This document shows positions 14,654-64,000 of a stretch of 64,000 nucleotides of DNA, in pieces. The notes beneath the pieces are model-generated. The model had not been told where the DNA came from. It did no database searches and saw only the letters and a list, made by a program, of their open reading frames with translations. Positions within the stretch are counted from its first letter, which is position 1. The number at the start of each line of letters is the position of its first letter. The DNA comes from an uncultured delta proteobacterium (lineage in GTDB: Bacteria > Desulfobacterota > Desulfobacteria > Desulfobacterales > JAFDCJ01), in NCBI GenBank assembly GCA_963769935.1, contig CAVYNY010000009.1, positions 315,671 to 379,670 of the forward strand, read 5' to 3'. The translations under genes and the position numbers were made by a program.

Positions 14654-14656
14654 TTT

Positions 14657-14788: not shown

Positions 14789-14822
14789 GCTGACTTTCTT
14801 TTTGAGGTTATACAGCCTCGCC

Positions 14823-15245
14823 TCATAGGGCGGCATGCAATATCGCCGGATAATTTTTCTTAAACCGCTCATAAGAACCTAAATAGATTACTCCGGCCCT
14901 TCTCAAACTTACCTCTGTTTCCTGATTCAGATTGTCAAAAAGCCCAATTATTTTTGCCGAAGGAAAGGATCTTCGCAAACTGCTGAATAAATTTTCATTT
15001 ATTTTTCGATTGAGTGAATCGGTAATAACGATCAAGCCGAAATTGTCACTTGCGCATGACGTTGGTCGGTCGTCCGGTCCTTCAATTCTCGTTATAGTGG
15101 GAAAAAACTCAGCCAGTATTTTAACCAATTCGTAAATTTTTGTCCCCTGCCTTCCCACCACCAGCACGTTTTGAAAACCTGCTTTTTCCATCCACCCTGC
15201 CCCAGGTTCATTGCATGTTTCTTCTACTAAATGATTTTTGCTCAC
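14823..15245 (-). CDS. Hypothetical protein, degenerate receiver-like fold
   Basis: Flavodoxin-like alternation (VLVVG, LIVITD, KIIGLFD); preceded by a sigma-54 promoter. Confidence 0.55.
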   Translation of the reverse strand: MSKNHLVEETCNEPGAGWMEKAGFQNVLVVGRQGTKIYELVKILAEFFPTITRIEGPDDRPTSCASDNFGLIVITDSLNRKINENLFSSLRRSFPSAKIIGLFDNLNQETEVSLRRAGVIYLGSYERFKKNYPAILHAAL

Positions 15246-17010: not shown

Positions 17011-17048
17011 CCTGGACCGATCTTCCGGTTGTATGGTTGAATTGAGTT

Positions 17049-17828
17049 TTAGGCTTCATCCAACACCTCCCGGACTTTCGCGGCCAAAGCCTGGGTCGAA
17101 AAAGGCTTCTGGATGAAGGGAAGCCCTTCTTCAAGCACACCGCGCTGGGCGATGACGTCGTCGGTGTACCCGGACATGTACAGTACCTTCAGATTCGGGT
17201 ATTTTTGAGCTGCTTTCTCATACAGTTGCCTGCCATTCAGTCCGGGCATAACCACATCGGTCGACAGCAAGTGCACGGGGGCATCGTGAGATGCCAATGT
17301 CCTCAGCGCTTCATCGCTGTGGTTGGCCGAAATGACCGTGTATCCCCGTTGCCTTAATATGAGGTGGGTCAACCGGCATGGCGTCGGAGGCGTTGACGGC
17401 CAGGTTCATGATCACCTGTTCCAATTGTCCGATATCGGCCATGACAGGCAGGAGACCGGGTGAGGAGACGGTTTTTATCTCGACATCTTCCGGGATCGTA
17501 CGCCGCAGCAGGTTTTTAAAATTTTCAATGGTCGCGTTAATGTCCACCGTTCTGAATTCCAAGGTCTGATTGCGGCTGAAGACCAGCAGCTGACGCAACA
17601 GATCCCGCGTAAGGTTTCCGGCTCTGAAGATTTCGTTCACCAACTCGCGCCGATTGTCGTTTTGCCCCAAACCTTCCAGCAACATTTCGCTGTAGCCGGG
17701 GAATTGATCACTTTAAGGACTTCAAAAACCATCAGCTGCTCCTGTTCAACGAGCTGATGCTCAAATTCGGCCCGTTCTAGTTCCTGGACTCTTTTTTCCA
17801 GTTCTTCATAGGTTGGCTTTTTAAGCAT
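17049..17828 (-). pseudogene. Hybrid histidine kinase remnant with internal deletions
   Basis: Three fragments: MLKKPTYEELEKRV start, partial HisKA/HATPase (QLEQVIMNLAVNASDAMP), C-terminal REC; H-box and G-boxes missing. Confidence 0.75.
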
Positions 17829-45076: not shown

Positions 45077-45122
45077 TTACGTAAAGCCGTCGTCTTCACG
45101 CCGTCTGTTCCACTGGTTCGCA
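45077..45122 (-). repeat. Truncated attC (5' half), distal end of array
   Basis: TGCGAAC..gaacagacggcgtgaagac..tttacgtaa, homologous to attC 56362..56466, immediately after the relE stop. Confidence 0.7.
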
Positions 45123-45282
45123 TCAGCGATAAATATCCTTCCGGTGGCCGACATTTTACAACCCAGACTGTCATTTCATCATCTTGTATAGAATATAAAA
45201 TCCGATATCGCCTTTGCCGCAACCGATACCTCTGTTGCCCTGTCAATTTTTCGCATCCCGGGGGACGAGGATCTTCTCCAAG
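45123..45282 (-). pseudogene. RelE/ParE toxin, 3' remnant
   Basis: DPRPPGCEKLTGQQRYRLRQRRYRILYSIQDDEMTVWVVK(VGHRKDIYR*). Confidence 0.8.
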
Positions 45283-45293
45283 CAGGAGACATA

Positions 45294-46130
45294 GGGGTCG
45301 CATCTCAAATATTAAGTATTTTCCTTCTGATTCGATCCTCCCGCCCCTTAAGCTTTCGATCCGCCTCAAGTTTTTTCGCGATCCGGTCATGCCGTGCCGC
45401 GATTCCAGCTCCGGAGATGTCGAACCGTCTGCCCAAGGCGACACCGGTTTCTCCCGTCAATTCCCTGCAAAGATAAATCGCCACATCCCGGGCTAAATTC
45501 CTCTTTTTCCCTTTTTGTAGGATGCTTTCTATCCCGCAACCGAATTCGTCGGAAACCGCTTCAATAAGATCATCGGGCGTTGGGCGGGGTTTCAGGATTT
45601 TCAGTTGCGGGATCTCCTTGCTGTTCGATTCCTTGCTTAAAAATGTCTTCTTCACCCAGTTTACGAAATCGACTCGCCCCAAAACAACACCGCCCACGAC
45701 GTCATCGGACGGATTCTCAATCTTTATGTTTTCGACCGACTCGACAAAATCACGGTATCCTTTTTTCGCGGTGTTCCTGTCCTCTCCGAACAGCGACAGT
45801 AACCAGTCCGTCTCCAGCCATTCCGGAGACTCAACATAGCCGCTTAAAGCCCGGTAGCTGCTCCATGGATAGTCTCTGCAATGTTCAACCATCCTCGCCC
45901 GCACCGGATTCAGATGGATATATCGCGACAGGTGCTTTAAATATTCATCCGCGTCCACCAGCACGGCTTTGAAGCGCCCTTGGAACAGATGACCGAAGCG
46001 TCTTCGTTTGCGATTGAAATACACCGAATAACCGACGTTGATCCATTTGATCGCCTGACTCAGGTTCGCATGCGGAGTTTCTATCAAAAAGTGATAATGC
46101 GTGCTCATCAGGCAAAAGGTATGGGCGATT
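45294..46130 (-). mobile_element. 5'-truncated Y1/HUH (RAYT-like) transposase with DnaA-like C-terminal HTH and its GACCCC end
   Basis: CLMSTHYHFL, GHLFQGRFKA, RYIHLNP, YPWSSY, ARDVAIYLCRE; stop followed by GATGCGACCCC|TAT. Confidence 0.85.
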
Positions 46131-46164
46131 TGGATCTTTGATTGTTTTGTCTTTAGAAATATTC

Positions 46165-46355
46165 TGCTCAGTATGTAATTTATCAAAATCTTCTTGAAAA
46201 ATTGCTTTATCTTCATTTTGCCTGATGAATTCAGCAACGCCTGATTTCTCGAGCGCCTCTTTAAGAACCGGTGTTTTTGTAAATTTGCGTTGCACTGCAC
46301 GGGCAGCACACCATACTGAGAAATTGTGTCGATGTTGGAAATGAGAATAATTCAT
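46165..46355 (-). pseudogene. 3'-truncated cassette gene (hypothetical)
   Basis: MNYSHFQHRHNFSVWCAARAVQR.. starts just after an attC, then fuses to the transposase fragment. Confidence 0.55.
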
Positions 46356-46732
46356 TTATTTGCCATATCGCTGCTCTTCAGAAGGCGCGTTTTTTTGCGA
46401 TCCGCTGGAAAAGCTTGTTGGGCCGTTGAGATATTGGCTTGAACGGCTTCTGCATGCAATTTTAAACCAAGTGCGCGCATAACTTTAAGTATTGTGTCAA
46501 AACCAGGGCTTCGTTCCCCAGACAGTGCCTTGTAAAGACTCTCGCGCGATAAGCCGGCATCACGCGCCACTTGTGACATACCTTTAGCCCGGGCTATATC
46601 TCCAAGAGCTTTTGCAATAAAAGCAGCGTCACCTTGCGCTTCCTCAAAACAGGCTTCAAGATAAGCGGCCATTTCCTCCGGGTTGCGAAGGTGTTCGGCG
46701 ACGTCATACTTAGTCGTGATAGTCTTAGCCAT
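46352..46732 (-). CDS. Addiction-module antitoxin (HI1420-like HTH)
   Basis: ALGDIARAKGMSQVARDAGLSRESLYKALSGERSP; ORF reads through the attC. Confidence 0.9.
   Translation of the reverse strand: MAKTITTKYDVAEHLRNPEEMAAYLEACFEEAQGDAAFIAKALGDIARAKGMSQVARDAGLSRESLYKALSGERSPGFDTILKVMRALGLKLHAEAVQANISTAQQAFPADRKKTRLLKSSDMANK
46363..46423 (-). repeat. attC site (R' mutated GTT>GAT)
   Basis: GCCCAAC aagcttttccagcgg...cttctgaagagcagc GATATGG. Confidence 0.7.
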
Positions 46733-46741
46733 GATACACTC

Positions 46742-47032
46742 CTATATATTCCTTGCGAGACGTAGGGCGGTTTTTATATCCTTGGCTTGCGTATTTTTGT
46801 CGCCGCCAGCCAGCAAAATTACCACCTTTTGTCCTTGTTTTTTAAAATACACCCGATATCCAGGTCCATAATCAATCCGCAATTCTGAAACGCCTTCACC
46901 AACCGGCTTCACATCTCCAGGATTTCCAGCTGCCAATCTTTCTATCCGCACAAGGATTCGAGCACGTGCGCGGATGTCATGCAACCCATCAAGCCATTTA
47001 GCGAAAATTTCTGTCTTGCGAATTTCAATCAT
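46742..47032 (-). CDS. Addiction-module toxin (HI1419-like, RelE superfamily)
   Basis: GNPGDVKPVGEGVSELRIDYGPGYRVYF, LLAGGDK. Confidence 0.9.
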   Translation of the reverse strand: MIEIRKTEIFAKWLDGLHDIRARARILVRIERLAAGNPGDVKPVGEGVSELRIDYGPGYRVYFKKQGQKVVILLAGGDKNTQAKDIKTALRLARNI

Positions 47033-47038
47033 GATAGT

Positions 47039-47067
47039 ATTGTAGCCATACGGCTACATAATGTCAA
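47039..47067 (-). promoter_or_regulatory. TA promoter with operator
   Basis: TTGACA-N17-TACAAT overlapping the TGTAGCC-N4-GGCTACA palindrome. Confidence 0.8.
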
Positions 47068-47089
47068 TGGGGATTTTCATGCATATTGA

Positions 47090-47194
47090 AGCCAACGTTT
47101 GGCGTGAGCAGCGGCCCAAATAAATACCAAGCTTGCACGGCATTTACGAAAATCCTCGATTTTCACGCCGTCTGCTCCAGTCGCATGGTTATAA
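47090..47194 (-). repeat. attC site
   Basis: TTATAAC...tggagcagacggc...gccgctgctcacgccaaac GTTGGCT. Confidence 0.85.
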
Positions 47195-47207
47195 CCGAAC
47201 TGGTGGT

Positions 47208-47522
47208 TTAGGCCGCATTAGAACTAAGAACCTGCACCTCTTTTTCAAGACGCTCTGCAAGGAGATCCTCCGTTACTTCAAGGTCAAATCGGTTTTGGAG
47301 ATTTAGCCAAAATTGAGGTGGCATTCCAAAGAAACGCCCTAAACGCAAGGCTGTATCCGCTGAGATGGACCGTTTCCCATGAACAATCTCGTTAATGCGT
47401 CTTGGAGGCACACTTATATCTTTGGCAAGTCTATATTGACTAATACCCATTGGGTTAAGAAATTCCTCAATAAGAATTTCTCCAGGATGAATGGGAGGTA
47501 GTTTTTTATTTTTCATGATCAT
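47208..47522 (-). CDS. higA: HigA antitoxin
   Basis: PIHPGEIL, RINEIVHGKRSISADTALRL, FWLNLQ. Confidence 0.93.
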   Translation of the reverse strand: MIMKNKKLPPIHPGEILIEEFLNPMGISQYRLAKDISVPPRRINEIVHGKRSISADTALRLGRFFGMPPQFWLNLQNRFDLEVTEDLLAERLEKEVQVLSSNAA

Positions 47523-47525
47523 CTC

Positions 47526-47807
47526 CTAAAGATAATCTGCAATTTCAACATCATACGCATCACCGGTTTCCCATTTGAAACAAATTCTCCACTGATCGTT
47601 TATGCGAATGCTATGTTGACCTTTTCGGTCTCCTTTTAATGCTTCCAATCTGTTTCCAGGTGGAACGCGCAATGTATTTAGTTCGGTAGCTGCATCCAAA
47701 ATAACCAATTTCCTGCGCGCAAGATGCTGAATATTTTCCGGTAATTTTTTGGAAAGAATTCTATTAAAGATTTTTTCAGTTTCTTTACCCCGGAAGTTTT
47801 TTATCAT
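47526..47807 (-). CDS. higB: HigB toxin
   Basis: PPGNRLEALKGDRKGQHSIRINDQWRICF. Confidence 0.93.
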   Translation of the reverse strand: MIKNFRGKETEKIFNRILSKKLPENIQHLARRKLVILDAATELNTLRVPPGNRLEALKGDRKGQHSIRINDQWRICFKWETGDAYDVEIADYL

Positions 47808-47813
47808 AGTAAG

Positions 47814-47848
47814 ATATTAACGCAACTCGTTAATAACGTCAAGCGTTA
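47814..47848 (-). promoter_or_regulatory. higBA promoter with two operators
   Basis: TTGACG-N17-TAATAT; tandem TAACG-N5-CGTTA palindromes. Confidence 0.8.
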
Positions 47849-47918
47849 AGTTTAATGAGATGAATTTTGGGAAATATCAATACAGTGGGAATATCTTTTA
47901 AAGCGTGATTTTAGGTGG

Positions 47919-47978
47919 TTATAACGCGCCGGTTCAGCGGTGGCGCCCAGCGCCGCCCGCTGCAACCGATTGTTCGAC
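47919..47978 (-). repeat. attC site
   Basis: GTCGAAC aatcggttgcagcgg...ccgctgaaccggcgc GTTATAA. Confidence 0.9.
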
Positions 47979-49229
47979 GGCCCGATATACGGCGCTCCCG
48001 CGCTGATCCTGCACGAGGTCATTTGCGGCGACGACATGCTGAATTGCGTCAGCTGTCATCGAATACCTCGTGACGGTTTCGCCGGCGAGGCGTACCGCCA
48101 AGGGCGGGGAGAGCAGGGCGCGTGCCGCAACGATCGCAAGTGGAACCAGACTTGGGAGGTCATGGGGCACGGGAGTAAGACAATCACGACTTCCTTTGTA
48201 CGGACCTCGATGTGCAATTAGCCGAACGAACTCACCAAGCACTGCCTTCCGCGTCTTAACGTAGGCAGCGGTCCCAAGCAAGACCGCTAATGAACTGTGC
48301 GTGCGGACACCAGGTCGTCCAACTCGCAAACCCGCTATTTCCTCTTCGCGAGAGAGCGCGAGCTGAAGTTCGGGCAGGTTGACGCCGCTTGCCGCAGCGT
48401 TGCCCGGCTCCACCGTCCGCGGGTTGCACTCGATGTAGAGGTGGTCCTCGCCTCGAAACATGTAGTCGAGCGTGAGCCCCCCATGCCAACGGAGTCGATT
48501 ACCCAGAACAGCCACGTCGTGCCGTGCGAACGCGTGGTCAATCCCAACCCGTCCGGCTGCGCTCGGGCCAATTCCCACTGCGGTTTGAGTGCTCGTATGA
48601 ACGGCGACGAGACGCCCGCGATCAAACAGTGCCTGCACCTGCGCGTACTCTCCATCAGCGGCGGCCTGAACCATGATGGGGCCGCCATGCTCGGCGGAGT
48701 GAAGCGATTCCCAGGCTCGTGTCGCATCAAGGCTGTTTGTGACTTTGCGCACACCAGACCCAGCCGTGCTGAATGAAGTCTTGAGGTAGAAAGGCGTGGC
48801 CCAGCCGGTAAGCTTCCCGGGCACGTCGACCACCTGCCACTTCGGCTGCGGGAGCCCTGCCTCATCCAGTAGGCGGGCGAATTCAATCTTGCTTTGGACA
48901 CGAGAGAACGCCTCGGCCGAGGCGATGGCGATCCGAACGCCTTGGCCGAGCCGCGATCGCCCAACGGCGAACAACCACGCCTGTTCGTGCGTCGGCAGAA
49001 GAACGTCGAAGGCACCTGTGGCGAGCAAGTCGTTAACCACCTTGAGGTAGCCAAGTGGATCTTTCGCCGCGGGAGGGCAGCGATGCACGCGCTTCGTCCA
49101 CCGACTAAAGCGGCAGATGCAGGCTGGGTCGGGATCGACGATCTCAATGTGATGGCCTGCAGGCCCCAGAACACTCAGAAACTCCCGTGCTGTCAGGCTA
49201 GATCCTTCAGAGAACAATATGCTAGCCAC
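47934..49229 (-). CDS. ATP-grasp fold protein (cassette)
   Basis: LLPTHE, SKIEFARLLDEAGLPQP, YLKTSFSTAGSGV, YIECNPR. Confidence 0.8.
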   Translation of the reverse strand: MASILFSEGSSLTAREFLSVLGPAGHHIEIVDPDPACICRFSRWTKRVHRCPPAAKDPLGYLKVVNDLLATGAFDVLLPTHEQAWLFAVGRSRLGQGVRIAIASAEAFSRVQSKIEFARLLDEAGLPQPKWQVVDVPGKLTGWATPFYLKTSFSTAGSGVRKVTNSLDATRAWESLHSAEHGGPIMVQAAADGEYAQVQALFDRGRLVAVHTSTQTAVGIGPSAAGRVGIDHAFARHDVAVLGNRLRWHGGLTLDYMFRGEDHLYIECNPRTVEPGNAAASGVNLPELQLALSREEEIAGLRVGRPGVRTHSSLAVLLGTAAYVKTRKAVLGEFVRLIAHRGPYKGSRDCLTPVPHDLPSLVPLAIVAARALLSPPLAVRLAGETVTRYSMTADAIQHVVAANDLVQDQRGSAVYRAVEQSVAAGGAGRHR

Positions 49230-49287
49230 GTTGCCTCCGGGCCGAGGTGCAACCGTTCGTGTTGTCGAACATGTCTTACCTCAAGGC

Positions 49288-49350
49288 GTCGAACGCCGCT
49301 TTTCAGCGGGCGCGCGCTTTTTGCGCTCCGCTGCAAAAGCTTTGTTATGT
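49288..49350 (-). repeat. attC site
   Basis: ACATAAC aaagcttttgcagcgg...ccgctgaaaagcggc GTTCGAC. Confidence 0.9.
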
Positions 49351-50205
49351 GTGCTCATGGGATAGTTCATTGCGAAAGAAATCTCCCAAGTCTTCCTTGC
49401 CACAAGAGGGCCCCACCATATTTCTCGTGATGACCGTCAGCGTGAATTCCGCCTGCCCATAAATTCTCTCTGGCGTGAGCTTCCTGACGAGCCACAGGAG
49501 GATTTTTGCGAAAAACACCGGGATGCATGTGACCTTTGGTTTGGTGCCCAGAGCGGCGAACGCTTCATGCGCAATTTCTCGATGCTTGAATATCACTGGA
49601 CCTCCAAAGCTCAGTTCCTGATCATCAAGATCAATTGCATCGATACATTTACCAGCAACATCCTTTCCGGATATCGGATTGATACGGAAGTCCCCTCGAC
49701 CGAAGAGGAAGACCCGACCGCTCTTGGCCATGTCCAAAAACGCGCGCATGTCCGAGAAATAACCGTTCGGGCGAATAATGGTGTAGTGGATGCCAGACCT
49801 ACGGAGTTCGCTGACAAAGCGCTCTTTCGCTTGAACAATCATAAGATCCGGCATCTGGTCAGCGTGCAGCACGGACACGTACACAAATTTCTTCACTCCG
49901 CAACTGAGAGCTTCCTTGAGAAGATTGAGGTTTCCCTGATAGTCGACATCCCGATAGCGAAGACCATCTTTTTGTCGGGTAATTCCGATGGCCGAAATAA
50001 CTATATCAATGTCCTGTGCAATCCCAGCCAAGGTGGACGGCTTCGTCACTTCTCCGACGAACACCTCATCAATCGCTGGTCGGGCTTGTGACAACTTCTG
50101 TTCGGAGCGAGTTAAAGCGCGTATCGCGTACCCTCTCTCCTTTGCTTCCTCAAGCAAGAAGTTGCCGAGATATCCTGTTGCTCCGGCTATTAGTACTTTT
50201 GGCAT
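49345..50205 (-). CDS. Atypical SDR / NAD(P)H-binding oxidoreductase (cassette)
   Basis: GATGYLG, DVDYQGN, IIRPNGYF; stop lies in the attC R'' box. Confidence 0.85.
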   Translation of the reverse strand: MPKVLIAGATGYLGNFLLEEAKERGYAIRALTRSEQKLSQARPAIDEVFVGEVTKPSTLAGIAQDIDIVISAIGITRQKDGLRYRDVDYQGNLNLLKEALSCGVKKFVYVSVLHADQMPDLMIVQAKERFVSELRRSGIHYTIIRPNGYFSDMRAFLDMAKSGRVFLFGRGDFRINPISGKDVAGKCIDAIDLDDQELSFGGPVIFKHREIAHEAFAALGTKPKVTCIPVFFAKILLWLVRKLTPERIYGQAEFTLTVITRNMVGPSCGKEDLGDFFRNELSHEHT

Positions 50206-50221
50206 GAGTCGGAGTCCTTAC

Positions 50222-50327
50222 ACATAACGTTGGCGGATAACCAGCGGGCTTACAGCTTTTCAAGCTTGCACGGCATTTCCGGTAAAGCGCATCAGTTATC
50301 CCGTCTGGTTGATCCGCCTGGTTATGA
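50222..50327 (-). repeat. attC site
   Basis: TCATAAC caggcggatcaaccagacggg...cccgctggttatccgccaac GTTATGT. Confidence 0.9.
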
Positions 50328-50723
50328 ATTGTCCCACGGTATTAGAGAATATACTATCAAGATAATGCCAACGCCAATTAATAAAAGACCAGTACTGCTT
50401 GGAATATGAACTCTGTATTTATAGTCCCATTCTTCAAAATAATAAATTAGTCCTCCGGGGATTAGCATCAGTCCCATCAAAAGCGTTTGATACTTTGCTT
50501 TAGGGAAATTTGATGGAAAATTTAATTGTATAGAGATTTTGGACTTATCTGCAAATACAAATAGAGGGATGAAAAAAACAAATATGAATAGAGGAAAAGC
50601 CAAAAGGGAGAAACCAAATACGGCGCCAGATCCATATGCTATTGCAGCTAAAATAAAGGCCACTATCCAAAGAGCTATCCAGCTCCAGAAAATAAGAGTC
50701 CATCTATTTTTTATTTTAGCCAA
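50322..50723 (-). CDS. Hypothetical 4-TM membrane protein (cassette gene 2)
   Basis: Four hydrophobic segments; stop in R'' box; start overlaps the upstream stop. Confidence 0.7.
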   Translation of the reverse strand: MAKIKNRWTLIFWSWIALWIVAFILAAIAYGSGAVFGFSLLAFPLFIFVFFIPLFVFADKSKISIQLNFPSNFPKAKYQTLLMGLMLIPGGLIYYFEEWDYKYRVHIPSSTGLLLIGVGIILIVYSLIPWDNS

Positions 50724-51156
50724 TTTTTTCCATAGTTCCTATCGGCTTCGTTCTGTAAATGAGATAGAACCAAAACCCATTCCACAGCCCTAAAGCCAAA
50801 AAGGAAACCAAACGGACAGTTGAAGATGGAGGACCTTGAGAAAACCCCCAAGCAAAACTATTTGCGGAATAAATGGCACTGATTACAAGAATAACCAATG
50901 CCATTTTCCTTGCCCACACTTTCTTGCAAAGAATACCTATCCCTGAAATTAGAAAAAAAATATTCATTACATTTTCTCTTGCGTATGAACCTACTTTGTA
51001 GGCAAACGATTTCGCTTGAAACTCTGGATGGTGTGGGCCAAGTCCAGTTAAAGGCCACAAAATTCCAAGACCACCGGCAATGATAAGATAAATCGCTGCT
51101 ATTTTAATTCCTTTTGTAGGAACCACGCTCCGTTTGTTTTGGTTATCGTCGTGCAT
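50716..51156 (-). CDS. Hypothetical 4-TM membrane protein (cassette gene 1)
   Basis: Four hydrophobic segments; ATG about 20 nt after the R' box. Confidence 0.7.
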   Translation of the reverse strand: MHDDNQNKRSVVPTKGIKIAAIYLIIAGGLGILWPLTGLGPHHPEFQAKSFAYKVGSYARENVMNIFFLISGIGILCKKVWARKMALVILVISAIYSANSFAWGFSQGPPSSTVRLVSFLALGLWNGFWFYLIYRTKPIGTMEKIG

Positions 51157-51177
51157 TTACATTCCTATTTTTGTACT

Positions 51178-51239
51178 GGCTAACGCTACGGCTGAGAGGC
51201 GCGAGGTAACGAGCGTCCGACTCCAGCCGATTGATACTT
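51178..51239 (-). repeat. attC site (R'' degenerate)
   Basis: ..aatcggctggagtcggacgctcg...cgcgcctctcagccgtagc GTTAGCC. Confidence 0.75.
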
Positions 51240-51261
51240 AAAGCATCACCTTCATTACGGT

Positions 51262-51690
51262 TTAATCGTATGCTGGATAATTTGTATCTGGGATGTGTGA
51301 ATGTTCTATAATTTTCCATTCACCATCGACTTTTTGCACCAAATACCAAAATTTTGTCTTCGGGTTCTTTTTTGCCGGATGTCTCATTTTCACCTCGACA
51401 ATTAGTTCCACGGCATCCTTTTCAATGGCAAGTCCGGAATATGAGGTTGTTCCGGCTCTGTCCGTATTGGTTGAACGAATAATACTGTATTCAATCCACC
51501 AATTTTCTAGACTTCCCTCAAATCCTATAGGATAAAAGCATTTAGATAAAACGTCTCGATCACCATAATTTTCGAAATACGTTTTCAGCGTGTTTTCAGG
51601 TGATGAAAAGTCCACCAAAGGCTGAGCGCTTGCAATACTAAACTGAACAATTGCAAGGCATAGCGATAATATGAATAGGTTTGCCTTCAT
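51262..51690 (-). CDS. Exported hypothetical protein, NTF2-like (cassette)
   Basis: Signal peptide from MKANLF; SPENTLKTYF and WYLVQKVDGEWKII are typical of NTF2-like small proteins. Confidence 0.65.
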   Translation of the reverse strand: MKANLFILSLCLAIVQFSIASAQPLVDFSSPENTLKTYFENYGDRDVLSKCFYPIGFEGSLENWWIEYSIIRSTNTDRAGTTSYSGLAIEKDAVELIVEVKMRHPAKKNPKTKFWYLVQKVDGEWKIIEHSHIPDTNYPAYD

Positions 51691-51699
51691 ATAATTGAA

Positions 51700-51952
51700 A
51701 CATAACGCCGCCTTCACCAGTTCATCTGGTGAAAGGCGTGGTTGGGAATTTTGGTCAATAAACTCAAACAGGTTATCGCTATAAACAAAACGAGCTGTGA
51801 AGAATGAAGGCCTACCCCCTTTTTCCAGGCCTTAGACAGATGATTGCTTAAACCGCTCTTTTTAAGTCCAAAAATATCGCTCTAAGACCAAAAAATGGCC
51901 ATATTTTTGACCTAAACCCGCATCAAATAAGCATCCAGTTTGGTCCGACCCC
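51700..51952 (-). repeat. 253-bp non-coding module, copy 1 (GGGGTCGGACC end + 48-bp attC at 51700..51747)
   Basis: Ungapped match to 59713..59965. Confidence 0.9.
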
Positions 51953-52069
51953 TAATCGACAATCCAGAAAGAAAGCCGAACGCATGATTCATGGGCACCC
52001 CTCCGGGCCGGCTCCTATTGCGGCACCTCCGCTCGGCATGGATGCAGGCGCCTTTTCGCTGTTATTTCG

Positions 52070-53422
52070 TTACTTCACCACCGTGGCGATTTTCGACCGT
52101 ACGGGAATGTTCACGGAATTCAGCCCAGGCGTCTGGCCGTGCAGGTCGAACTTGAGCTTCACCTGAGGCCGGAAGATCAGGCAGTGCGTGGAGCCGCCGA
52201 AATGGAACATGCCGAGTTGATCGCCTTTGCTCACACGTTGCCCCACTGACACAGTAATTTCGTTCGAGGAAACCTCCGCCATGCCTACGAAGAGGACCGC
52301 CATCAGGCCGATGTCCGGATTGTCCGCTTCGATGAAGATCAACGCCCTGCTCGCAACCTGGGTTATGTATCCCTGCGACTCGTTGGGCCCCGCCGGATCG
52401 AACCCCACCGACAAAGCTTCGGCATAGTACGATCCGTCGATCAGCCGGGTCTTCACGATCCTTCCGCTGACCGGACTGTGCCAGCGGTGGTAGCTCAAAG
52501 CACTGAGAAAGGCCTGATAAATCGTACCGCCTTCGAATTGCCCGATAAGGGGATCACCAGCCAGCATGTGGTAAAGTGAGTAAGGTTGTGATTTGATCCA
52601 GAATGTGTCGCTCCCCTTCACGTCCCTGGCGAGCCGGTAGGGAGCCGACTCGCAGGCGTTGGCAATGACCGCTTCGTCCATGGGGGAGGCCACCGGCCGT
52701 CGGCCTTTCCGGAACCGGCGAGTGAAAAAGTCATCCCAGGAGGTGAATCCGTAGTAGGGCTTTTCCGGATCGCACTGAAAATCCTCGACGAAGGTCGGCA
52801 TCGCTTTTTTCGCGTCCCGGCCGAACCATCCGGTTTCGGGATTGTCATTCAGGACGTATCGAGACTCTTTCGACTTTAGGAACTCGCCCCATTGATCCAG
52901 AATCTTTTTTATCTGGCTGTTCACCTTTGGATTCAGGAAAACGGTCGTCCCTGCCGGAGTCGCCATGGGCCAGTTGATGATGGCATTAATGGGAAACCCG
53001 ACCAGACCCGTCTGGTTGAATTCAGGGGCCTTGGTCATGATCTGGTTGATGAGCTGCAGCATGAGCCGGTAGTCCCTGATCTGGGGCCGGCCGGTGGGGT
53101 CTTTGCGGTACTCGGGGGTGTTGCTGGGAACCTGCTCGAACATTTGAGTAAAGAGCATGAGGAGCTCCGGGTCGCTTTCGATAAGGTTCTTGAACTCCTG
53201 AACGACAAGCGCCAGGGGCTGGGCTTTGTCATTGGTTTCCAGGACGAGGTCTTTAACCCATTGATTCAGGACTTGCTGATCGGAGGGCTGCCACTGGCCG
53301 ACCTGGTAGGGAACCGGCTTTTCGGTTGCATGAGGGCTTAACTGCTGCGCCGCCGCACAACAAAAAACTGACAGGTGCAGGAGTGCAACACTTAGTAAGA
53401 TCTTCTTCAATATACTCGACAT
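52070..53422 (-). CDS. Phosphatidylserine decarboxylase family protein with signal peptide
   Basis: DFFTR, SYHRWHSPV, GMAEVSS, FHFGGST autocleavage motif. Confidence 0.9.
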   Translation of the reverse strand: MSSILKKILLSVALLHLSVFCCAAAQQLSPHATEKPVPYQVGQWQPSDQQVLNQWVKDLVLETNDKAQPLALVVQEFKNLIESDPELLMLFTQMFEQVPSNTPEYRKDPTGRPQIRDYRLMLQLINQIMTKAPEFNQTGLVGFPINAIINWPMATPAGTTVFLNPKVNSQIKKILDQWGEFLKSKESRYVLNDNPETGWFGRDAKKAMPTFVEDFQCDPEKPYYGFTSWDDFFTRRFRKGRRPVASPMDEAVIANACESAPYRLARDVKGSDTFWIKSQPYSLYHMLAGDPLIGQFEGGTIYQAFLSALSYHRWHSPVSGRIVKTRLIDGSYYAEALSVGFDPAGPNESQGYITQVASRALIFIEADNPDIGLMAVLFVGMAEVSSNEITVSVGQRVSKGDQLGMFHFGGSTHCLIFRPQVKLKFDLHGQTPGLNSVNIPVRSKIATVVK

Positions 53423-53527
53423 ATGCCATTCTCCTTGTTGAAATTAAAGATTCGGCGGCCCGGGGGGGCCACAGTAACATATTGATGAATTTTCATGCGA
53501 AAACTGGCCGATTAAGAGGCATGGATA

Positions 53528-53758
53528 TTAGGGGACGTTCCCCGGATTCTCGGATTTGACCTCTCCCAAATGCTGCCATCTGTGCTCCTCGATGATTTGC
53601 CGTCCTCTCGTCGTAAATTCGCTTGCCGTAGAGTACGCGATGTTTAGTTTTTTCGATATCCAGACCGCGCTCATCCACAGCTCTCGCGTCCTCCAATAGC
53701 ATAATATGCTCCGAGCTTTTACCGCTCTTCGTTGCTTTCCGCCCGTTATTATTTCAGG
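53528..53758 (-). pseudogene. 3' remnant of a RAYT-like transposase with terminal repeat
   Basis: Translates GGKQRRAVKARSILCYW..ISKKLNI..SENPGNVP*, homologous to the 3' end of 54264..55301; GGGGACGTTCC at 53531. Confidence 0.85.
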
Positions 53759-53771
53759 TGCAAAATAATAA

Positions 53772-53815
53772 GGAGCGCAGCGGATGAAAATTCATAGTGC
53801 AGCGACTTGTTCGAG
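53772..53815 (-). repeat. Truncated attC (5' half)
   Basis: CTCGAAC aagtcgctgcac...ccgctgcgctcc, then abuts the transposase remnant. Confidence 0.55.
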
Positions 53816-53842
53816 TGGCCATACATTATTAGATTGCAGCAA

Positions 53843-54250
53843 TTATTTCACATCAATCGTCTCATTAATATTTAAAAAGGTTAAAACGACCTTAGCAAAT
53901 TCGATAGGTGCTTCAGTTATCAAATGGTGAGTTCCATTTTTGAATTGAACCAGCCATGCCCCAGGAATTGCGGAAGCGAGAATTTTTGAACTTTCAATTC
54001 CGACTATGTGATCCGAAGTTCCAACAATAAACATGACCTGATTAGAAATGGAAGGTAGTTGATCCATTGGGGTCTTCCAATGAATTGTAGCTAAAAGTTG
54101 CCGTATTACGGTTGGGTTGTCAGGTGTTTTACCTGTTAAAGCTTTAGCGACTTCACATCCATCTGCAGAGGTCGCGTGGATAATTGCTTTATTAAAATAG
54201 TCCGGATACTCCAGTAATAGTTCTTGGGTGATCACACTTCCCAGGAAGGG
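53843..54250 (-). pseudogene. Alpha/beta hydrolase, 5'-truncated cassette gene
   Basis: Begins at the nucleophile elbow (LGSVITQEL); GTSDHIV, GTHHL. Confidence 0.7.
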
Positions 54251-54263
54251 ATTATGAAGGGCA

Positions 54264-55301
54264 TTAAGGGACGTTCCTCGGATTTTCGGATTTGTTCTCT
54301 TCCAGGAGATTCCATCCGTGCTCTTCGACTATTTTCCGTCCTCTCATCGCGGATTCGCTCGCCGTCGAGGCTGCGATGTTCAGTCTTTTCGATATCGAAA
54401 CCGCGCTCAGCCCGAGTTCTCGGGTCCCCCAATAACATAGCACACTTCGAGCCTGTACCATTTTTCGTTGCTTTCCGCCAGTCAATAACTCCTTGAAAGT
54501 AAGACCGAATAAACCAAGCACGCGATCCACCAACCAGTCAAAGTCGTACCCCAATTCTCGGATTCTATACTTTCGATCTAAATTCTCTTGAGCAGCCTTT
54601 AATACGGTCTCGACGAAATCCCCCTGGCCAAGGATGCGTTCATCACCTTTCATCCTGCTCTCATCGTTGCGCATGGCCCTCAATGCGGACCACCCTCCGG
54701 CGCTTCTCACCAACCCACCTCCCGTCAACTCGGGCCGGCGTCCCGCCGCAACCCCCTTCTTTACAAACTCAAGATAAAGCCTGCGGGCTTCCGGGACCTT
54801 CTTTCCAAAAAGATTAAGGATATAATCAACATCCTGAAAGCGAGGCTCGTTCTTTCCCATCAAAACGCAATGTCCGCAGTAAGGGTATTTATTTAACATT
54901 TTTATATCCTTCACGATTCTGGCTCGCAAGGGATTCAAGTGAATATAGCGCACCAGTTCCAACAGGTATGGATCTTCTTGACATAATACGGACTTGTATC
55001 GATTCTGGAACAAGTGACCATGGCGACGATGACGCCGATTGAAACTCACTGCATATCCGGTCAAAAGTTTACGCATTACCGTGGCAATAGGGGCGGTACC
55101 TGTCCTCAATAATAAGTGGAGGTGATTTGTCATAAACGCCCATGCAAAACAGGGCGTCTGACTGTCCGACAGGATATCGCCAAGTCGATCTAAAAAATCA
55201 TCACGATCGGGATCATCAAAAAAAATCTTTCTTCGATTAATCCCCCTCACGATGATATGGTGCAAGGCTCCAGGAGCATCTATACGGGCTTTTCTTGGCA
55301 T
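54264..55301 (-). CDS. Y1/HUH transposase (RAYT-like) with C-terminal DnaA-like HTH
   Basis: LHHIIVRG, HUH in MTNHLHLL, GHLFQNRYKS, LVRYIHLNP, ARSVLCYWGTRELG. Confidence 0.92.
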   Translation of the reverse strand: MPRKARIDAPGALHHIIVRGINRRKIFFDDPDRDDFLDRLGDILSDSQTPCFAWAFMTNHLHLLLRTGTAPIATVMRKLLTGYAVSFNRRHRRHGHLFQNRYKSVLCQEDPYLLELVRYIHLNPLRARIVKDIKMLNKYPYCGHCVLMGKNEPRFQDVDYILNLFGKKVPEARRLYLEFVKKGVAAGRRPELTGGGLVRSAGGWSALRAMRNDESRMKGDERILGQGDFVETVLKAAQENLDRKYRIRELGYDFDWLVDRVLGLFGLTFKELLTGGKQRKMVQARSVLCYWGTRELGLSAVSISKRLNIAASTASESAMRGRKIVEEHGWNLLEENKSENPRNVP

Positions 55302-55359
55302 GCCATTTCAATAACAAATAATTCGTCTCCTGTAAACCGTAAATCCGAGGAACGTCCCC
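54267..55359 (-). mobile_element. RAYT/TIRYT-like element bounded by 23-bp inverted repeats
   Basis: (A/G)GGGACGTTCCTCGGATTT(T/A)CGG at 54267..54289 and inverted at 55337..55359 (21/23 match). Confidence 0.85.
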
Positions 55360-55497
55360 TATAGCCCTCCCCTTGAAGCCTATCAATGCGAAGCAACTAA
55401 ATCCTAGTAAAGTGCAATTAAGCCAATCCAATTTAGAACAGTCATAATATTCGGAATTAGCGTGTTTCTATTTAAAGTTACTATCTATGTCTCATAC

Positions 55498-55626
55498 TCA
55501 TAACGTGGAAGTGAGGGGCCGGGCAGGGATTGCCTAAACTCTAAATAATGACCACAACCTGCTGAAAAACAATAGTTGTAAAAATGGCACGGCTTTGCCC
55601 GTTCCCTCTCCACTGATTTGTTCTGC
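55498..55626 (-). repeat. attC site
   Basis: GCAGAAC aaatcagtggagagggaacgggc...gcccggcccctcacttccac GTTATGA. Confidence 0.88.
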
Positions 55627-55629
55627 ATC

Positions 55630-55860
55630 TCAGTGAGTCTTAATATGGTTGTTAAATTTTTCCGCCAACTCCAAAATTGAAAGTTGAAGGCCTGCTATCT
55701 TTTGAATTGCCCAAGCTTGAAAAATTTCATCCTTACGATTCTTGTCATTAGGATGCTCTTCAATATACGATTGATAATGCGCATGGAATTCATAGATTAG
55801 GTCCTCAGTTTTTGCATCAACTCTTTTTAAACTTTCCGCTAATTTATCAGCACTTGACAT
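55630..55860 (-). CDS. Small hypothetical protein, 76 aa (cassette)
   Basis: SD AAGGGAG, ATG at 55860, fills the space between two attC sites. Confidence 0.7.
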   Translation of the reverse strand: MSSADKLAESLKRVDAKTEDLIYEFHAHYQSYIEEHPNDKNRKDEIFQAWAIQKIAGLQLSILELAEKFNNHIKTH

Positions 55861-55884
55861 GTGTTCTCCCTTTAAATGTTGGTA

Positions 55885-55951
55885 GCAGAACGTAGGCTTC
55901 AGCGGGAGCGGCCGCTTTTTGGCCGCGATCCGCTGAAAGCCATGGTTCTGT
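55885..55951 (-). repeat. attC site
   Basis: ACAGAAC catggctttcagcgg...ccgctgaagcctac GTTCTGC. Confidence 0.9.
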
Positions 55952-55957
55952 GCTCTT

Positions 55958-56352
55958 TTATATCTGATATTCTTCGATAAAATTCGGCTCTCCAATCTCC
56001 TTGGTAAATGCCGATTTTGCCTTCAAATGCAATTTTTTCCCATACATGGTGAAAAGAACCAACTCCATTTTGCGATCAGTTTGAAATGGCAATTTCATCA
56101 TATTTACCGATTTATTGCCATCAATGATGAAGAATCCATAATCAATATCATTTGGCAAATCATCAGGGAACTCGATGACAGTTACCCCTAAACAAATAAG
56201 CTCAATTTTCTGAACCAGCCGGTTCCTTTGCTAATTCCGGGTGTACCTCCGCTATGGTGAACATAAGCTTCATCAAAATAAAGAATTGCCTCATCGTTGG
56301 TAACTTTAATTTCTTTTAAAGTAGAATCGTGAAATTCAATTTCTCTGTTCAT
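55958..56352 (-). CDS. Hypothetical protein, about 130 aa (cassette; frameshift near 56210)
   Basis: MNREIEFHDSTLKEIKV...GTGW then IELICLGVTVIEFPDDLPNDID...EEYQI*. Confidence 0.65.
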
Positions 56353-56361
56353 GATTTACAC

Positions 56362-56466
56362 ACAGAACGTCCTGCGATGAGCAGCGGCCCAATTTCAGAC
56401 AAATTTTGCAAGGCCTTTACGTAAAACCGCAGTCTTCACGCCGTCTGCTCCACCGACTGGTTGGGC
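56362..56466 (-). repeat. attC site
   Basis: GCCCAAC cagtcggtggagcagacggc...gccgctgctcatcgcaggac GTTCTGT. Confidence 0.9.
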
Positions 56467-56467
56467 G

Positions 56468-57892
56468 TTATTGCAATTCAAGACATTTTCGCAACCCGTA
56501 GTGAACCGAACATTTCTTTCTAACCCTAAACCTTTTTGTCGGTTCTCTATATTTGAAATCAGGAGTCGTCCTATCTGGCGAGTCAAAAATTCCAATCGCA
56601 CTAAAATCAAAGAGCTTACCCAGAATGTTATTTACAGATGTATCAGACTGAATACTCGCCTTTTGGAAGTACCTGTTTATATCTTTGGCATAAAAGGAAC
56701 TTTTTCCATGATCGCGAATAGCCTCAAGAACTGACTCTATATCAGGCACAAGCGCAGACACTTCATCGACCAGTTCATCTCGAAACCAGTCACTATATTC
56801 GGTTTCGGCAGCGATGAATGCTTGCCGATTCGCAATAGAGAGCTGCTGTTTTCGACAAACACGCTGAAGGCATTTTGTGAATTCAATAACATCTCGAGGT
56901 CTGAGGAATGTTCTAGCAAGTAACCAGGAAAAGGGCTTAACATTCCCTCTAATTTTATCTTTAGTTGTGATACGTCGCCAATAGTCCGTAGCTTCATTAG
57001 GTACCTGGTCCATTGAGGCACCAATGCGCAAGTTGATCATATTAAAAAGGGATGATGTCATAGGTGAACCATGCCCTATAGACCAGTCGATATCTAACCG
57101 CCTATCCTTGATTTTATTTCTATCAGAATACTGCAGTTTTTTATATATATCATCTCGCAAGAGCGCAACAGCTCTTATTGTCTTGTGATTTGCCTCACAA
57201 GTTGAATTAATCTGATCTAACGCCTTTAGCAAACCAATTAGTATATCGTTATAATCATCAGGCCTTGCCTCATAAATATCATCCAATTCATCGCAAAACA
57301 GAATATATTTATTTGCAAGATTTGCAGATCGTATCAGACATTCCTCTAAGCTATCAAGGTACCGCAGTAAGTCTATTTCTTCTTCTCTATCCTTAGTTTT
57401 TTTAACAACATGCGCTTCAACAACCTTTACACGGAGCTTCATACCCTTTTCAATTGTTGATGACAGGTAGTCAACTGCCTTTGCCTTAAGGTCAGGGCAA
57501 TTCAATTCTAAAAATGCAGACAGCTGTTGACTCTCAACCGGTGGGACAGACTGGTCGCGAATCACCAATTTCGACAACTCAAGAAGTAGGATATATCGCC
57601 ATACTGGAACGAACTTTGAAGCCCCAGCGAAGCGTGAATCCTGAAACTTATCGATAAGACCAAGAGGTATGTCTCTGCCGGAAATCACATCAGCTATTTG
57701 GTCATATGTATTTATTGAGGTTTTAATTATGTATGTAGATATAGCTGTTTTACCAGAGCCTTTTCTTCCAACAATCAAATGTATTTTACCGTCAATAACT
57801 TTTTTGACCTCACCCGTGTCATAAAAGTAGCGCTCTAAATTATCATACTTTGCTTCATTAGATCCAAAATCTATCACTCGTATATCGTACAT
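56468..57892 (-). CDS. P-loop ATPase (FunZ/Sll1717-like) (cassette)
   Basis: Walker A GRKGSGKT, Walker B LFCDELDD, LLRDDI, RTFLRPRD; SD AGGAGG before ATG 57892. Confidence 0.8.
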   Translation of the reverse strand: MYDIRVIDFGSNEAKYDNLERYFYDTGEVKKVIDGKIHLIVGRKGSGKTAISTYIIKTSINTYDQIADVISGRDIPLGLIDKFQDSRFAGASKFVPVWRYILLLELSKLVIRDQSVPPVESQQLSAFLELNCPDLKAKAVDYLSSTIEKGMKLRVKVVEAHVVKKTKDREEEIDLLRYLDSLEECLIRSANLANKYILFCDELDDIYEARPDDYNDILIGLLKALDQINSTCEANHKTIRAVALLRDDIYKKLQYSDRNKIKDRRLDIDWSIGHGSPMTSSLFNMINLRIGASMDQVPNEATDYWRRITTKDKIRGNVKPFSWLLARTFLRPRDVIEFTKCLQRVCRKQQLSIANRQAFIAAETEYSDWFRDELVDEVSALVPDIESVLEAIRDHGKSSFYAKDINRYFQKASIQSDTSVNNILGKLFDFSAIGIFDSPDRTTPDFKYREPTKRFRVRKKCSVHYGLRKCLELQ

Positions 57893-57923
57893 ACTGCCTC
57901 CTGAAAAAATCAAAGGGATTCAA

Positions 57924-58051
57924 GCCCAACGGGGCGTTTCACCTGCCGGCGGTGGGCTTTAACAATAAAGCTCGGATTGAAAAATCGAATACAAATCGAA
58001 TGTTGCAGGCCGCAAGATATAGCCGGTCAGAGTGCAAACGCATGGTTAGGA
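57924..58051 (-). repeat. attC site
   Basis: TCCTAAC catgcgtttgcactctgaccggc...gccggcaggtgaaacgcccc GTTGGGC. Confidence 0.9.
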
Positions 58052-58066
58052 ATTTTCTCAAACTTT

Positions 58067-58381
58067 TTATATGTTAAAGAAATTTTTTTTGATTATTCTC
58101 AGTCCACAATGGACGCATTCATTTCTAAATGGATTTAACAAACCCCAAAAACCTTGAAAGTACCTCTCACAGCGAGGGCACTTGGTAAAAGAAAAATAAA
58201 AATATAGAAAAAATCAACGAGATAGCAAAAAGAAAATATACTAACTTAACGGCAAAATAGTTATTCTCGACAAAATTTAATATAAACATAATCGGCATCA
58301 AAATAAGAAAAAGAAAAACAGGTAGACGTTTCCTTCTCCTTAATTTTTTAATGCCGATAGTAAATCAGACTCATCTGTCAT
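58067..58381 (-). CDS. 2-TM protein with C-terminal zinc ribbon (cassette; two homopolymer frameshifts)
   Basis: Reconstructed MTDESDLLSALKKLRRRKRLPVFLFLILMP..TKCPRCERYFQGFWGLLNPFRNECVHCGL; absent from the ORF track. Confidence 0.6.
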
Positions 58382-58391
58382 ATGGCGATAT

Positions 58392-58522
58392 TCCTAACGG
58401 TTGAGTTGTGGGGCCGGGAAGCAATGAATTAGTGAAATTAAAAATGGCACATAATTGGTATCAACCACGACTTTGAAAAAAGCCACGGTTTTTCCCGGAC
58501 CCACACCAGCGAATTGTTGGGC
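58392..58522 (-). repeat. attC site
   Basis: GCCCAAC aattcgctggtgtgggtccgggaa...ttcccggccccacaactcaacc GTTAGGA. Confidence 0.9.
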
Positions 58523-58530
58523 AACCCTAC

Positions 58531-59686
58531 TTACCCAGCCTTGGACGACGCTTCGTCGCCGCATATGATACCCGCTGCCTCGATCAGCTGGACCCATTCG
58601 TCGCTGACCTTTCTGGCTTCCAACATCACCATCAATCCCTGCCGTAGTCGCCTCAAAACAGGCCGGAGGTCTCGCGACATTTTCTCGATAGGCGCGATGG
58701 CATCAATCATCCCTTTAGCAGATCCGAGCCCCTCACGAGAAGCTGCAGACATGGTTCGAATTGCCTCGAAGAATTCACACACTCCCGCCTTCGCTTCGGG
58801 CTCGCGCTCGATCTCGGACGCGGCATGCTCGATTATGGTACGGAATCCCAGGTCAACTTCGTGGAGCTGTGATGCGAATTCGTTACCGAAGGATCGGATA
58901 CGCTCGACCGGGTCAGTTAGATGACGGGCAACTCCCCTAGCGAACGACCAGTCGTGCAGCAAATCCCTTACCTTGGTTCTCGCGACCCTGGATGTCCGCC
59001 GTGGCCTCCTGCATTGTCTGTCCGATCAGTTCGATATCCTTTCCAATCGCGGTGATCGTCTCGACAAGCCTCGGAAGCGCGTCTTCCGCCGCAGCAATTC
59101 GATCAATGAACCCAGGTGATTCATCCGCGCCTTCGGAACCACCCTCCTCGACTTCCAGGACACGGGCAGCGATATCGACACCTTCAACCTGTCGATTAGC
59201 CTCAACTATCCTCGCCGCTAGCCGCGCTACGGCCTTCCGATAGTTTCCCGACGAGGTCTCTTCAAACCGCAGCTCGCGCCAGTCGTCCCACTGGAACGCC
59301 TGGACAACTGCCAGTAGATCGTCCTGCGGAGATTCGTCGTGAAGGCCGGCCACATCAAGGTAGAGCAATGGGAGCACGAGCTCCTTGATTCCAAGATTTG
59401 TTGCCTTTCTGGAGAAAAACTGCAGTTCCCTACGACATTCAGGGCTCATGAAGTACCTGGGCGTCAGCACTGGTATGAAGAAAGCAACTGAAGCAAGGCT
59501 GGAGTCGATTTTGTCCTTCCAATTGTCGCCCCATTTGATCGCGTCCTGGTCCAGAAATAGTTCGAGGGCTTCACCCGTTAGCATCTCAAATTGGCCCTTT
59601 ACGTCTTTTGCCAGTCTTGAGATTCGGCCGCCTTCGGCCTCGTCATCGGCGTGGACGTAAGACCAGAATCCTTGTAAAGTCGCCAT
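58531..59686 (-). CDS. TIR-domain protein with helical C-terminal domain (cassette; frameshift near 58945)
   Basis: GFWSYVHAD, LFLD..IKWGDNW, FFIPVLTPRYFMSPECRRE; two collinear ORFs fill one cassette. Confidence 0.85.
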
Positions 59687-59712
59687 AGAACTTCTCTGAC
59701 TTTCGTGGGTCA

Positions 59713-59965
59713 GCCCAACGCCGCCTTCACCAGTTCATCTGGTGAAAGGCGTGGTTGGGAATTTTGGTCAATAAGCTCAAGCAGGTTATCGCTATAAACA
59801 AAACAAGCTGTGAAGGATGAAGACCTACCCCCTTTTTCCAGGCTTTAGCCAGATGATTACTTAAACAGCTATTTTTAAGTCCAAAAACATCGCTCTAAGA
59901 CCAAAAAACGGCCCTATTTTTGACCTAAACCCTCATCAAATAAGAATAGAGCTTGGTCCGACCCC
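59713..59965 (-). repeat. 253-bp non-coding module, copy 2 (GGGGTCGGACC end + 48-bp attC at 59713..59760)
   Basis: Ungapped match to 51700..51952. Confidence 0.9.
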
Positions 59966-60119
59966 GAATCACACTGCTGGTAAAGACCGAACATTTCCGA
60001 CGATCTGAGCAAACAACTGGTCACCACTGATTGCGGATCCTTGAGACTCTGTTTGTACAAGAGCAATTCTCGAACCACAGCGGACTATTTGATCCAACAC
60101 TGTCTAAGCGCCTAACGGA

Positions 60120-63910: not shown

Positions 63911-63942
63911 GTTGGTCCCTTACGATCAGTTAAGATTTTGCC

Positions 63943-64000
63943 ACATAACGTTTCCGGGTGAGGTGCGGCCCTCGATCCATAGCGAACCAAAAGCCTATAC
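63943..64000 (-). repeat. attC site, 3' part (continues beyond window)
   Basis: ..gggccgcacctcacccggaaac GTTATGT, 32 bp before the gajA ATG; same style as other attC 3' arms. Confidence 0.7.

Follow-up and report, generated by a model that had tools for sequence, protein, structure and literature searches.

The window analysed here, a stretch of 64,000 nt from an uncultured delta proteobacterium (G000:C9:315671-379670, where G000 is the source assembly, a 96.7% complete draft, and C-numbers are its contigs), ends where its contig ends. From position 45077 onward it is occupied by an array of gene cassettes that all lie on the minus strand and are each closed by an attC site; within this array lie one intact transposable element of the TIRtron/TIRYT family, fragments of two others, and solo repeat ends. 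The first-pass annotation had described six ends of the form G(A/T)CCCC|(T/G)A, each at a rearrangement junction, and attributed them to HUH elements remodelling the array. All six ends were found (45294, 51952, 53531, 54267, 55359 and 59965), and the motif fits five of them, because the end at 54267 reads GTCCCT|TA. The features at and beside these ends, including short tandem duplications at the junctions (stutters), are as follows.

45125–45282, minus strand: relE-type 3' remnant, residues 34–76+ of an 85-aa homologue, frameshifted near its end
45285–45293, minus strand: 9-nt tail outside the repeat, similar in other family-B copies
45294–46123, minus strand: right end of a family-B TIRtron with a 5'-truncated Y1 gene (Bac_DnaA_C tail), 98% identical to a copy on C11
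51700–51952, plus strand: unit of attC and solo end (D1, 254 nt), comprising a 48-nt attC (51700–51747), a spacer and a ~110-nt end finishing GGTCCGACCCC
52070–53422, minus strand: intact phosphatidylserine-decarboxylase-family (PSD) gene between two ends facing it, with no attC of its own
53531–53770, minus strand: right end and ~220–240 nt of a second family-A element (D2), 78–80% identical to the intact element
53843–54244, minus strand: 3' half of an alpha/beta hydrolase gene, residues 139–271 of a 271-aa homologue, 89% identical
54245–54266, minus strand: tail and stutter, two imperfect 11-nt units
54267–55359, minus strand: intact TIRtron of family A (I1), inverted repeats around a 345-aa HUH/Y1 gene (54264–55301)
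55360–55372, plus strand: 8-nt tail and 5-nt C-rich stutter, adjoining the left end at 55359
55373–55445, minus strand: small membrane-protein cassette gene, codons 1–25 (the homologue has 67 aa), frameshifted in this assembly
59713–59965, plus strand: second unit of attC and solo end, 93% identical to 51700–51952, its 12-nt tail shared with a copy on C20

Comparison with intact homologues confirmed that all three genes reported as cut are truncated, and that their breaks lie 12–23 nt from an end and not away from the ends. The relE remnant lacks its 5' half relative to the intact 85-aa homologue, and homology begins at 45282, 12 nt outside the 45294 end. The hydrolase, which lacks the 5' half of the intact 271-aa homologue and is 92% identical to a 304-aa homologue, begins to match at 54244, 23 nt outside the 54267 end, and its missing half was not found in the assembly. 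The cassette gene starting near 55445 keeps 25 codons of its 67-aa homologue, with homology stopping at 55373, 13–14 nt from the 55359 end; one contig from run X1 carries an additional base at 55409, inside this gene. The flanks of the intact element proved, as described, to belong to different genes and to show no target duplication, and its arms (54258–54292 and 55334–55368; 35 nt with tails) are 86% complementary. The family-B fragment at 45294–46123 starts directly after ...CC in the broken upstream cassette gene.

That every end marks a rearrangement junction was upheld for the three ends beside cut genes; at 51952, 53531 and 59965 no flank gene is truncated, and the evidence there is indirect (different partners, a missing attC, mismatched cassette ends). 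The junctions at 51952, 53531 and 54267 are bridged by contigs from other runs and are thus not assembly artefacts, whereas the 45294 junction has coverage of just 20 nt on one side and no such bridging contig is listed for 55359 or 59965. The bare motif GWCCCC is not enriched in the window (39 occurrences vs 57.8 expected), but the ~25-bp repeat behind each end is non-random and has homologues elsewhere in the genome.

The 345-aa open reading frame (ORF) matched PF01797 in Pfam, and the histidines of the HUH motif (H60, H62) and the catalytic tyrosine (Y119) are invariant in 17 sequences. The C-terminus of family A gave a profile match to DnaA domain IV (positions 246–321), corresponding to a DnaA-like helix-turn-helix (HTH), and family B carries a Bac_DnaA_C domain. 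The best structural match of the 345-aa protein was TnpAREP (4ER8, E 4.5e-6), while its score of 62.7 stayed below the NCBIfam REP_Tyr_transpos equivalog cut-off of 80 bits. Motif, Pfam domain and fold match bear out the assignment of the ends to HUH (Y1) elements. Among 160 related loci, the elements of which come mostly from Desulfobacterales records, a repeat pair was present in 80 of the 132 with room for one, mostly 53–65 nt before the start codon. As defined by Di Nocera, De Gregorio & Rocco (2013; PMC3733652), TIRtrons combine an HUH/Y1 transposase that has a DnaA-type tail with inverted repeats of ~25 bp. In the classification of Quentin et al. (2018; PMC6006769) they correspond to TnpA_Y1 subclass 2.1, subgroup 2.1.2. 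Subclass 2.1 is the second largest TnpA_Y1 group, present in 14.9% of strains (PMC6006769), and TIRYT proteins have the HUH motif and catalytic tyrosine 58–67 aa apart, with repeats that start GGGGWSAS in the majority of cases, not all. The intact element is a TIRtron/TIRYT of TnpA_Y1 subclass 2.1, and its domain layout suggests placement in subgroup 2.1.2; GGGGWS fits five of the six ends, and the last two positions of GGGGWSAS do not fit. Four of the ends (45294, 53531, 54267 and 55359) are TIRtron ends. The other two, 51952 and 59965, have homologous ~110-nt ends across the order and, judged by their sequence, are likely solo ends of a related kind; their membership in a C35-type family was not supported, as they gave no alignment match to C35.

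Junctions in the tails beyond the repeats

A boundary exactly at CCCC| was rejected, since stutters and flank counterparts place the break beyond a short tail, which was G-poor outside GTCCCY across 172 ends. Tandem duplications at the junction were found at 21 of 158 ends (13%), compared with 6 of 1331 control positions in flanks, 3 of 1738 in element interiors and 3 of 600 at random GWCCCY motifs (0.2–0.5%). In a wider set, 43 of 286 ends carried such a duplication, the second copy of which started at +4 to +10 in 39 of the 43. An uninterrupted counterpart of the flank was available for 58 of 463 ends, and its first shared base fell at +5 to +12 in 37 of them. Because stutter starts and first shared bases both lie beyond GTCCCY, the functional end is a few bases outside the repeat, about 5–13 nt beyond CCCC. 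Target duplications were not in excess, being no longer in 78 elements than in 770 mismatched pairs. The base shared at the junction was C in 12 of 23 cases (p=0.012 vs background).

Flanks that do not rejoin were found in the complete genome of Desulfosarcina alkanivorans PL12 (G411), where four TIRtron copies at least 99.6% identical, with shared tails, lie within 40 kb. Each end of these copies is joined to a different site in paralogous modules with a C-rich overlap of 0–3 nt; none of the left flanks carries on in the right flank of any copy, the left target being identified for three of the four. Of the 23 junctions whose counterpart was at least 95% identical, 19 had it on the same molecule, in all 19 cases on the same strand, with 15 targets upstream and 4 downstream. 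Duplications occur at ends as well as deletions: at locus L174, 864 nt are cleanly duplicated up to the left tail, and the comparison of alleles in relatives, as the first-pass annotation had proposed, revealed that the orthologous loci L086 and L185 differ by a gene of ~442 nt, with the break 10–11 nt outside the left end. Among 61 intact elements, four flank genes were broken at the junction and in none of the four was the other half found opposite; Pfam searches of 96 flank frames added two or three further one-sided broken-gene cases. The four G411 copies (L282–L284, G411:C1:6868001-6928000) mark the borders of paralogous modules, truncated at the 5' side, that derive from a large Ig/CAP-domain gene, and they also flank an Rhs-repeat gene with a primase-integrase block.

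Junction variants, likewise anticipated, were present in near-identical populations from other runs, as a changed stutter and two ends at distant sites, one contig each. One contig, otherwise identical, lacks one 11-nt stutter unit at 54245. A 637-nt left-end contig with a single difference (99.8%) diverges after 55367 and continues into sequence that is uninterrupted in the present assembly, inside an intact shikimate-kinase-like ORF on C20, the join lying at C20:37847. A loose end at 55366 matches C15:149131, and the source copy of that end is ambiguous. The loose end at 54760, seen in three runs, was discarded as a variant because it is explained by another partial copy on C10. Plasmids (4 distant records) and viral contigs (2 weak loci) yielded no filled/empty pairs.

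Probable single-end action and competing explanations

From the breakpoints, stutters, non-rejoining flanks and strand bias observed directly in this family, we infer that the transposase makes both the nicks and the joins and has a preference for C. The ends probably act singly, with deletion, duplication or insertion as the outcome. The transposase would nick the tail, on the strand that runs from repeat to flank, about 5–12 nt beyond GTCCCY and usually after a C, and the freed 3' end would be joined to a second nick on that strand. Joining to a site farther out would delete the adjacent DNA, as may have happened to relE, the hydrolase and the 55445 gene; joining to a site farther in would duplicate 7 nt to several kb in tandem; and if both ends were joined at one site, the element would insert almost cleanly. 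Cutting by HUH enzymes leaves a 3'-OH and a 5'-phosphotyrosine. TnpAREP cuts outside its hairpin and transfers strands in vitro, and a model of 3'-OH-primed amplification has been proposed for bacterial interspersed mosaic elements, BIMEs (PMC3333891).

Several results weigh against this reading. Among intact relatives, 51 of 55 flanks with a homologue are uncut, and locus L111 keeps synteny with C10 (146 vs 179 nt between conserved blocks), which is compatible with a near-clean intergenic insertion; destructive joins are therefore a minority among intact elements. Synteny with another sequence was found for 7 of 61 elements, L111 versus C10 being the one informative empty site, and L158 was rejected as a syntenic locus because it is a paralogue fragment. 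Thus the earlier claim that these elements cause deletions or swaps rather than simple insertions is supported by comparative and population data as regards loss and swap next to ends, but is overstated as regards insertion. Two genomes whose modules are co-oriented anyway account for 13 of the 19 same-strand cases. The preference for C at targets is weak: the shared-C count gives p=0.43 under a null that lets the donor alone end in C, and the hint from the preceding base, C in 11 of 15 (p about 0.005), was hand-counted post hoc. The population variants are single low-depth contigs with loose ends of 20 nt and 185 nt, and are possibly chimeric. The inner truncations at 46123 and ~53770 are not at repeats, though both follow CC; at C17:223278, an end from a different TIRtron family has joined inside a family-B gene, indicating that some inner truncations are made at ends. 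The ends finishing GGTCCGACCCC (51952 and 59965) had no Y1 gene within ~1.5 kb in any of 12 homologous loci, so that no transposase is tied to them and they are assigned by likeness. Moreover, recombination between copies after clean insertions could mimic the G411 pattern.

In a rival scenario, TIRtrons insert cleanly by both ends, and their flanks come to mismatch only afterwards, when near-identical copies undergo homologous recombination and the dispensable region decays in the ordinary way. It suits this scenario that the majority of intact relatives leave genes uncut, that synteny at L111 is kept, that near-identical co-oriented copies which could recombine exist, and that any insertion predicts a break at the true element end. 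We nevertheless consider it unlikely, since none of the G411 flanks is complementary among the four copies, which would require at least 8 insertions and 4 deletions, and since neither the stutters and kilobase-scale duplications stopping at the tail nor the single-end gene loss at L086/L185 is explained by clean insertion and recombination. The ends in the window, which are 78–80% alike or unrelated, are also poor substrates for recombination. Another possibility, quite unlikely in our judgement, is that the transposase only nicks, and that slippage or template switching of the host polymerase at the free 3'-OH, guided by 0–3 nt of microhomology, makes the duplications and deletions. Junction microhomology is indeed short and variable, and stutters of 7–65 nt fit re-priming, for which the BIME amplification model (PMC3333891) offers a precedent; joins that span kilobases or reach other contigs on 0–2 nt of homology, however, are more easily explained by enzyme-catalysed strand transfer, and the hint of a target-side C preference speaks against joining by host repair only.

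The array shows further decay in half attCs, frameshifts and inner truncations away from ends, and the short motif is common, as would be expected if the ends were passive fossils and the truncations chance deletions. This interpretation is largely refuted by the stutter controls (13% vs <1%), the first-shared-base positions and the same-strand targets, and it also has to accommodate three gene breaks that all lie 12–23 nt from an end and population variants that sit at ends; it appears highly improbable. For single-end action by the transposase, these results define a concrete substrate that can be tested: a single end, sufficient by itself, with a predicted nick on the strand running from repeat to flank, about 5–12 nt beyond GTCCCY and probably following a C. 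If this is right, TIRtrons would generate deletions, duplications and fused genes locally, both in cassette arrays and in other loci of modular build, without depending on IntI.

Relation to integrons and known mobile elements

Sites of attC were called with a home-made detector combining a position weight matrix and pairing, which gave no match at score ≥26 in 1.3 Mb of shuffled sequence; it was trained on this genome and fetched loci and is therefore probably less sensitive in other genomes. A strict attC finder was dropped because it missed most sites, and an Rfam scan gave no match. With the home-made detector, 17 of 41 TIRtron loci in this genome lie within 3 kb of an attC, compared with a mean of 1.2 and a maximum of 6 under random placement (2000 draws) and with 2 of 20 other insertion sequences (IS), whereas elsewhere only 5 of 57 intact elements do; the predicted enrichment near attC thus applies to this genome and is weak beyond it, in counts that rest on a detector biased to this genome. 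No attC was called in the G411 cluster or in a 135-kb cluster of genome G415. Rather than being a dedicated target, arrays seem to be one among several kinds of modular region that tolerate such joins. The proposal of a second shuffling layer over IntI was not supported, as the behaviour is not integron-specific and the assembly, from which the array runs out at the contig end, contains no intact IntI and only four broken IntI genes (C20:456416-456848, C16:347677-348523, C13:559634-560334 and C17:217801-218256), the best scoring 164 against the TIGR02249 cut-off of 265 bits. An intact IntI could lie unseen in an assembly gap. Many small attC clusters are dispersed over the genome (54 sites at score ≥26).

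The core and inverse-core boxes of cassette start and attC matched perfectly (7/7 positions) in 8 of 11 end-free intervals and in none of the three scorable intervals holding repeat ends. The unit of attC and solo end occurs in three copies in this genome with three different partners; a wider occurrence was rejected, since across 401 genomes the two halves are separate and are fused only here and in G008, the copy of which lacks the terminal motif. The PSD gene is a candidate captured gene, and its 71% homologue in G027 has no attC nearby. It is conceivable, though doubtful, that TIRYT is a one-site HUH recombinase which uses a single attC-like end, excises and re-inserts adjoining DNA, builds its own oriented arrays (32 of 32 ends in G415), pulls non-cassette genes such as PSD into integron arrays and hands attC to new genes through the end-plus-attC unit; if so, that unit would be a route to new integron cassettes. 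The G415 cluster (L288–L294, G415:C1:1275001-1410000), where all 32 terminal inverted repeat (TIR) ends are co-oriented over 135 kb, comprises several repeat families, with many solo ~25-nt ends between gene modules and one full-length TIRYT gene lacking a left end. In Pseudomonas aeruginosa (L279), three shorter Y1 genes (14239–14931, 16538–17230 and 22170–22862) with GGGGACAG inverted ends lie among toxin/immunity-type modules.

The TIRtron/TIRYT family is already named; new here are the base-level evidence for exchange of flanks at one end at a time, the strand rule and the population variants. Our elements share with it the RAYT-like HUH/Y1 gene, the C-terminal DnaA-type HTH, the GGGG-W-S inverted repeats and dispersed solo repeats, but their repeats start GGGGACGT, GGGGTCGC and GGGGTCGG rather than GGGGWSAS. 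The parts of PMC3733652 and PMC6006769 available to us contain no cut site, repeat-external tail, junction stutter, adjacent deletion or attC link, and the words 'integron' and 'target site' each occur 0 times in the portion of TIRtron-defining text examined. A literature search that reached few subscription papers returned no experimental work on subclass 2.1 and nothing on single-end behaviour, which is also not covered in the available parts of PMC5581495 and the RAREFAN preprint. REPtron/TnpAREP (RAYT; PDB 4ER8) is the best structural match, and its cutting at a short site beyond the structure that it recognises, its strand transfer and the model of tandem amplification (PMC3333891) parallel what is proposed here; the present protein, in contrast, is about twice as long, has an HTH and falls below the equivalog cut-off, its elements reach several recent near-identical copies per genome, and its flanks show long inverted repeats, not REP hairpins, with no dedicated search made for GTAG-tagged hairpins. 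IS200/IS605 elements (IS608, ISDra2) have the same Y1 HUH fold and no target duplication; they lack terminal inverted repeats, act on one strand and have subterminal hairpins (PMC3333891), and their TnpA is short, whereas here the protein has 345 aa, the ends are inverted and behave alike, and flanks are often lost or duplicated. One-ended rolling-circle IS91/ISCR elements share the HUH enzyme, a single end that mobilises or rearranges adjacent DNA, and association with cassette arrays (in part as described second-hand in PMC7923331), but Pfam gives only Y1_Tnp (PF01797) here and the repeats are symmetric and inverted, unlike oriIS/terIS. As a cluster of attC sites lacking an integrase (CALIN), the array is typical in its co-oriented cassettes, matched attC boxes and toxin-antitoxin cassettes, but TIR ends make three or four of its intervals chimeric, and one gene lacks an attC.

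The remaining features of the array are as follows.

45077–64000, minus strand: attC cassette array with ~15 sites or remnants of attC, continuing past the contig end
45077–45125, minus strand: first half of an attC at the distal array end, repeat family D4
53772–53815, minus strand: first half of an attC, adjoining the inner junction of the 53531 fragment
60120–63910, minus strand: pair of OLD-family ATPase/TOPRIM and UvrD genes in a ~4-kb cassette

The start of the OLD/UvrD cassette, which we take to be Gabija-like, mismatches the attC now closing its interval, and its own attC appears to have been replaced. The interval 50327–51184, which holds two ORFs, has mismatched cassette boxes without a TIR end. 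Both other family-B genes (C11:462678 and C17:222819) carry, within the left end and ~85 nt ahead of the start codon, an intron-like sequence presumably akin to the 3' end of a group II intron. Besides the relE remnant (45125–45282), two intact toxin-antitoxin pairs lie near the distal array end (46352–47807), and the cassette at 55502–55913 has a 97% identical copy with different neighbours in another array on C18.

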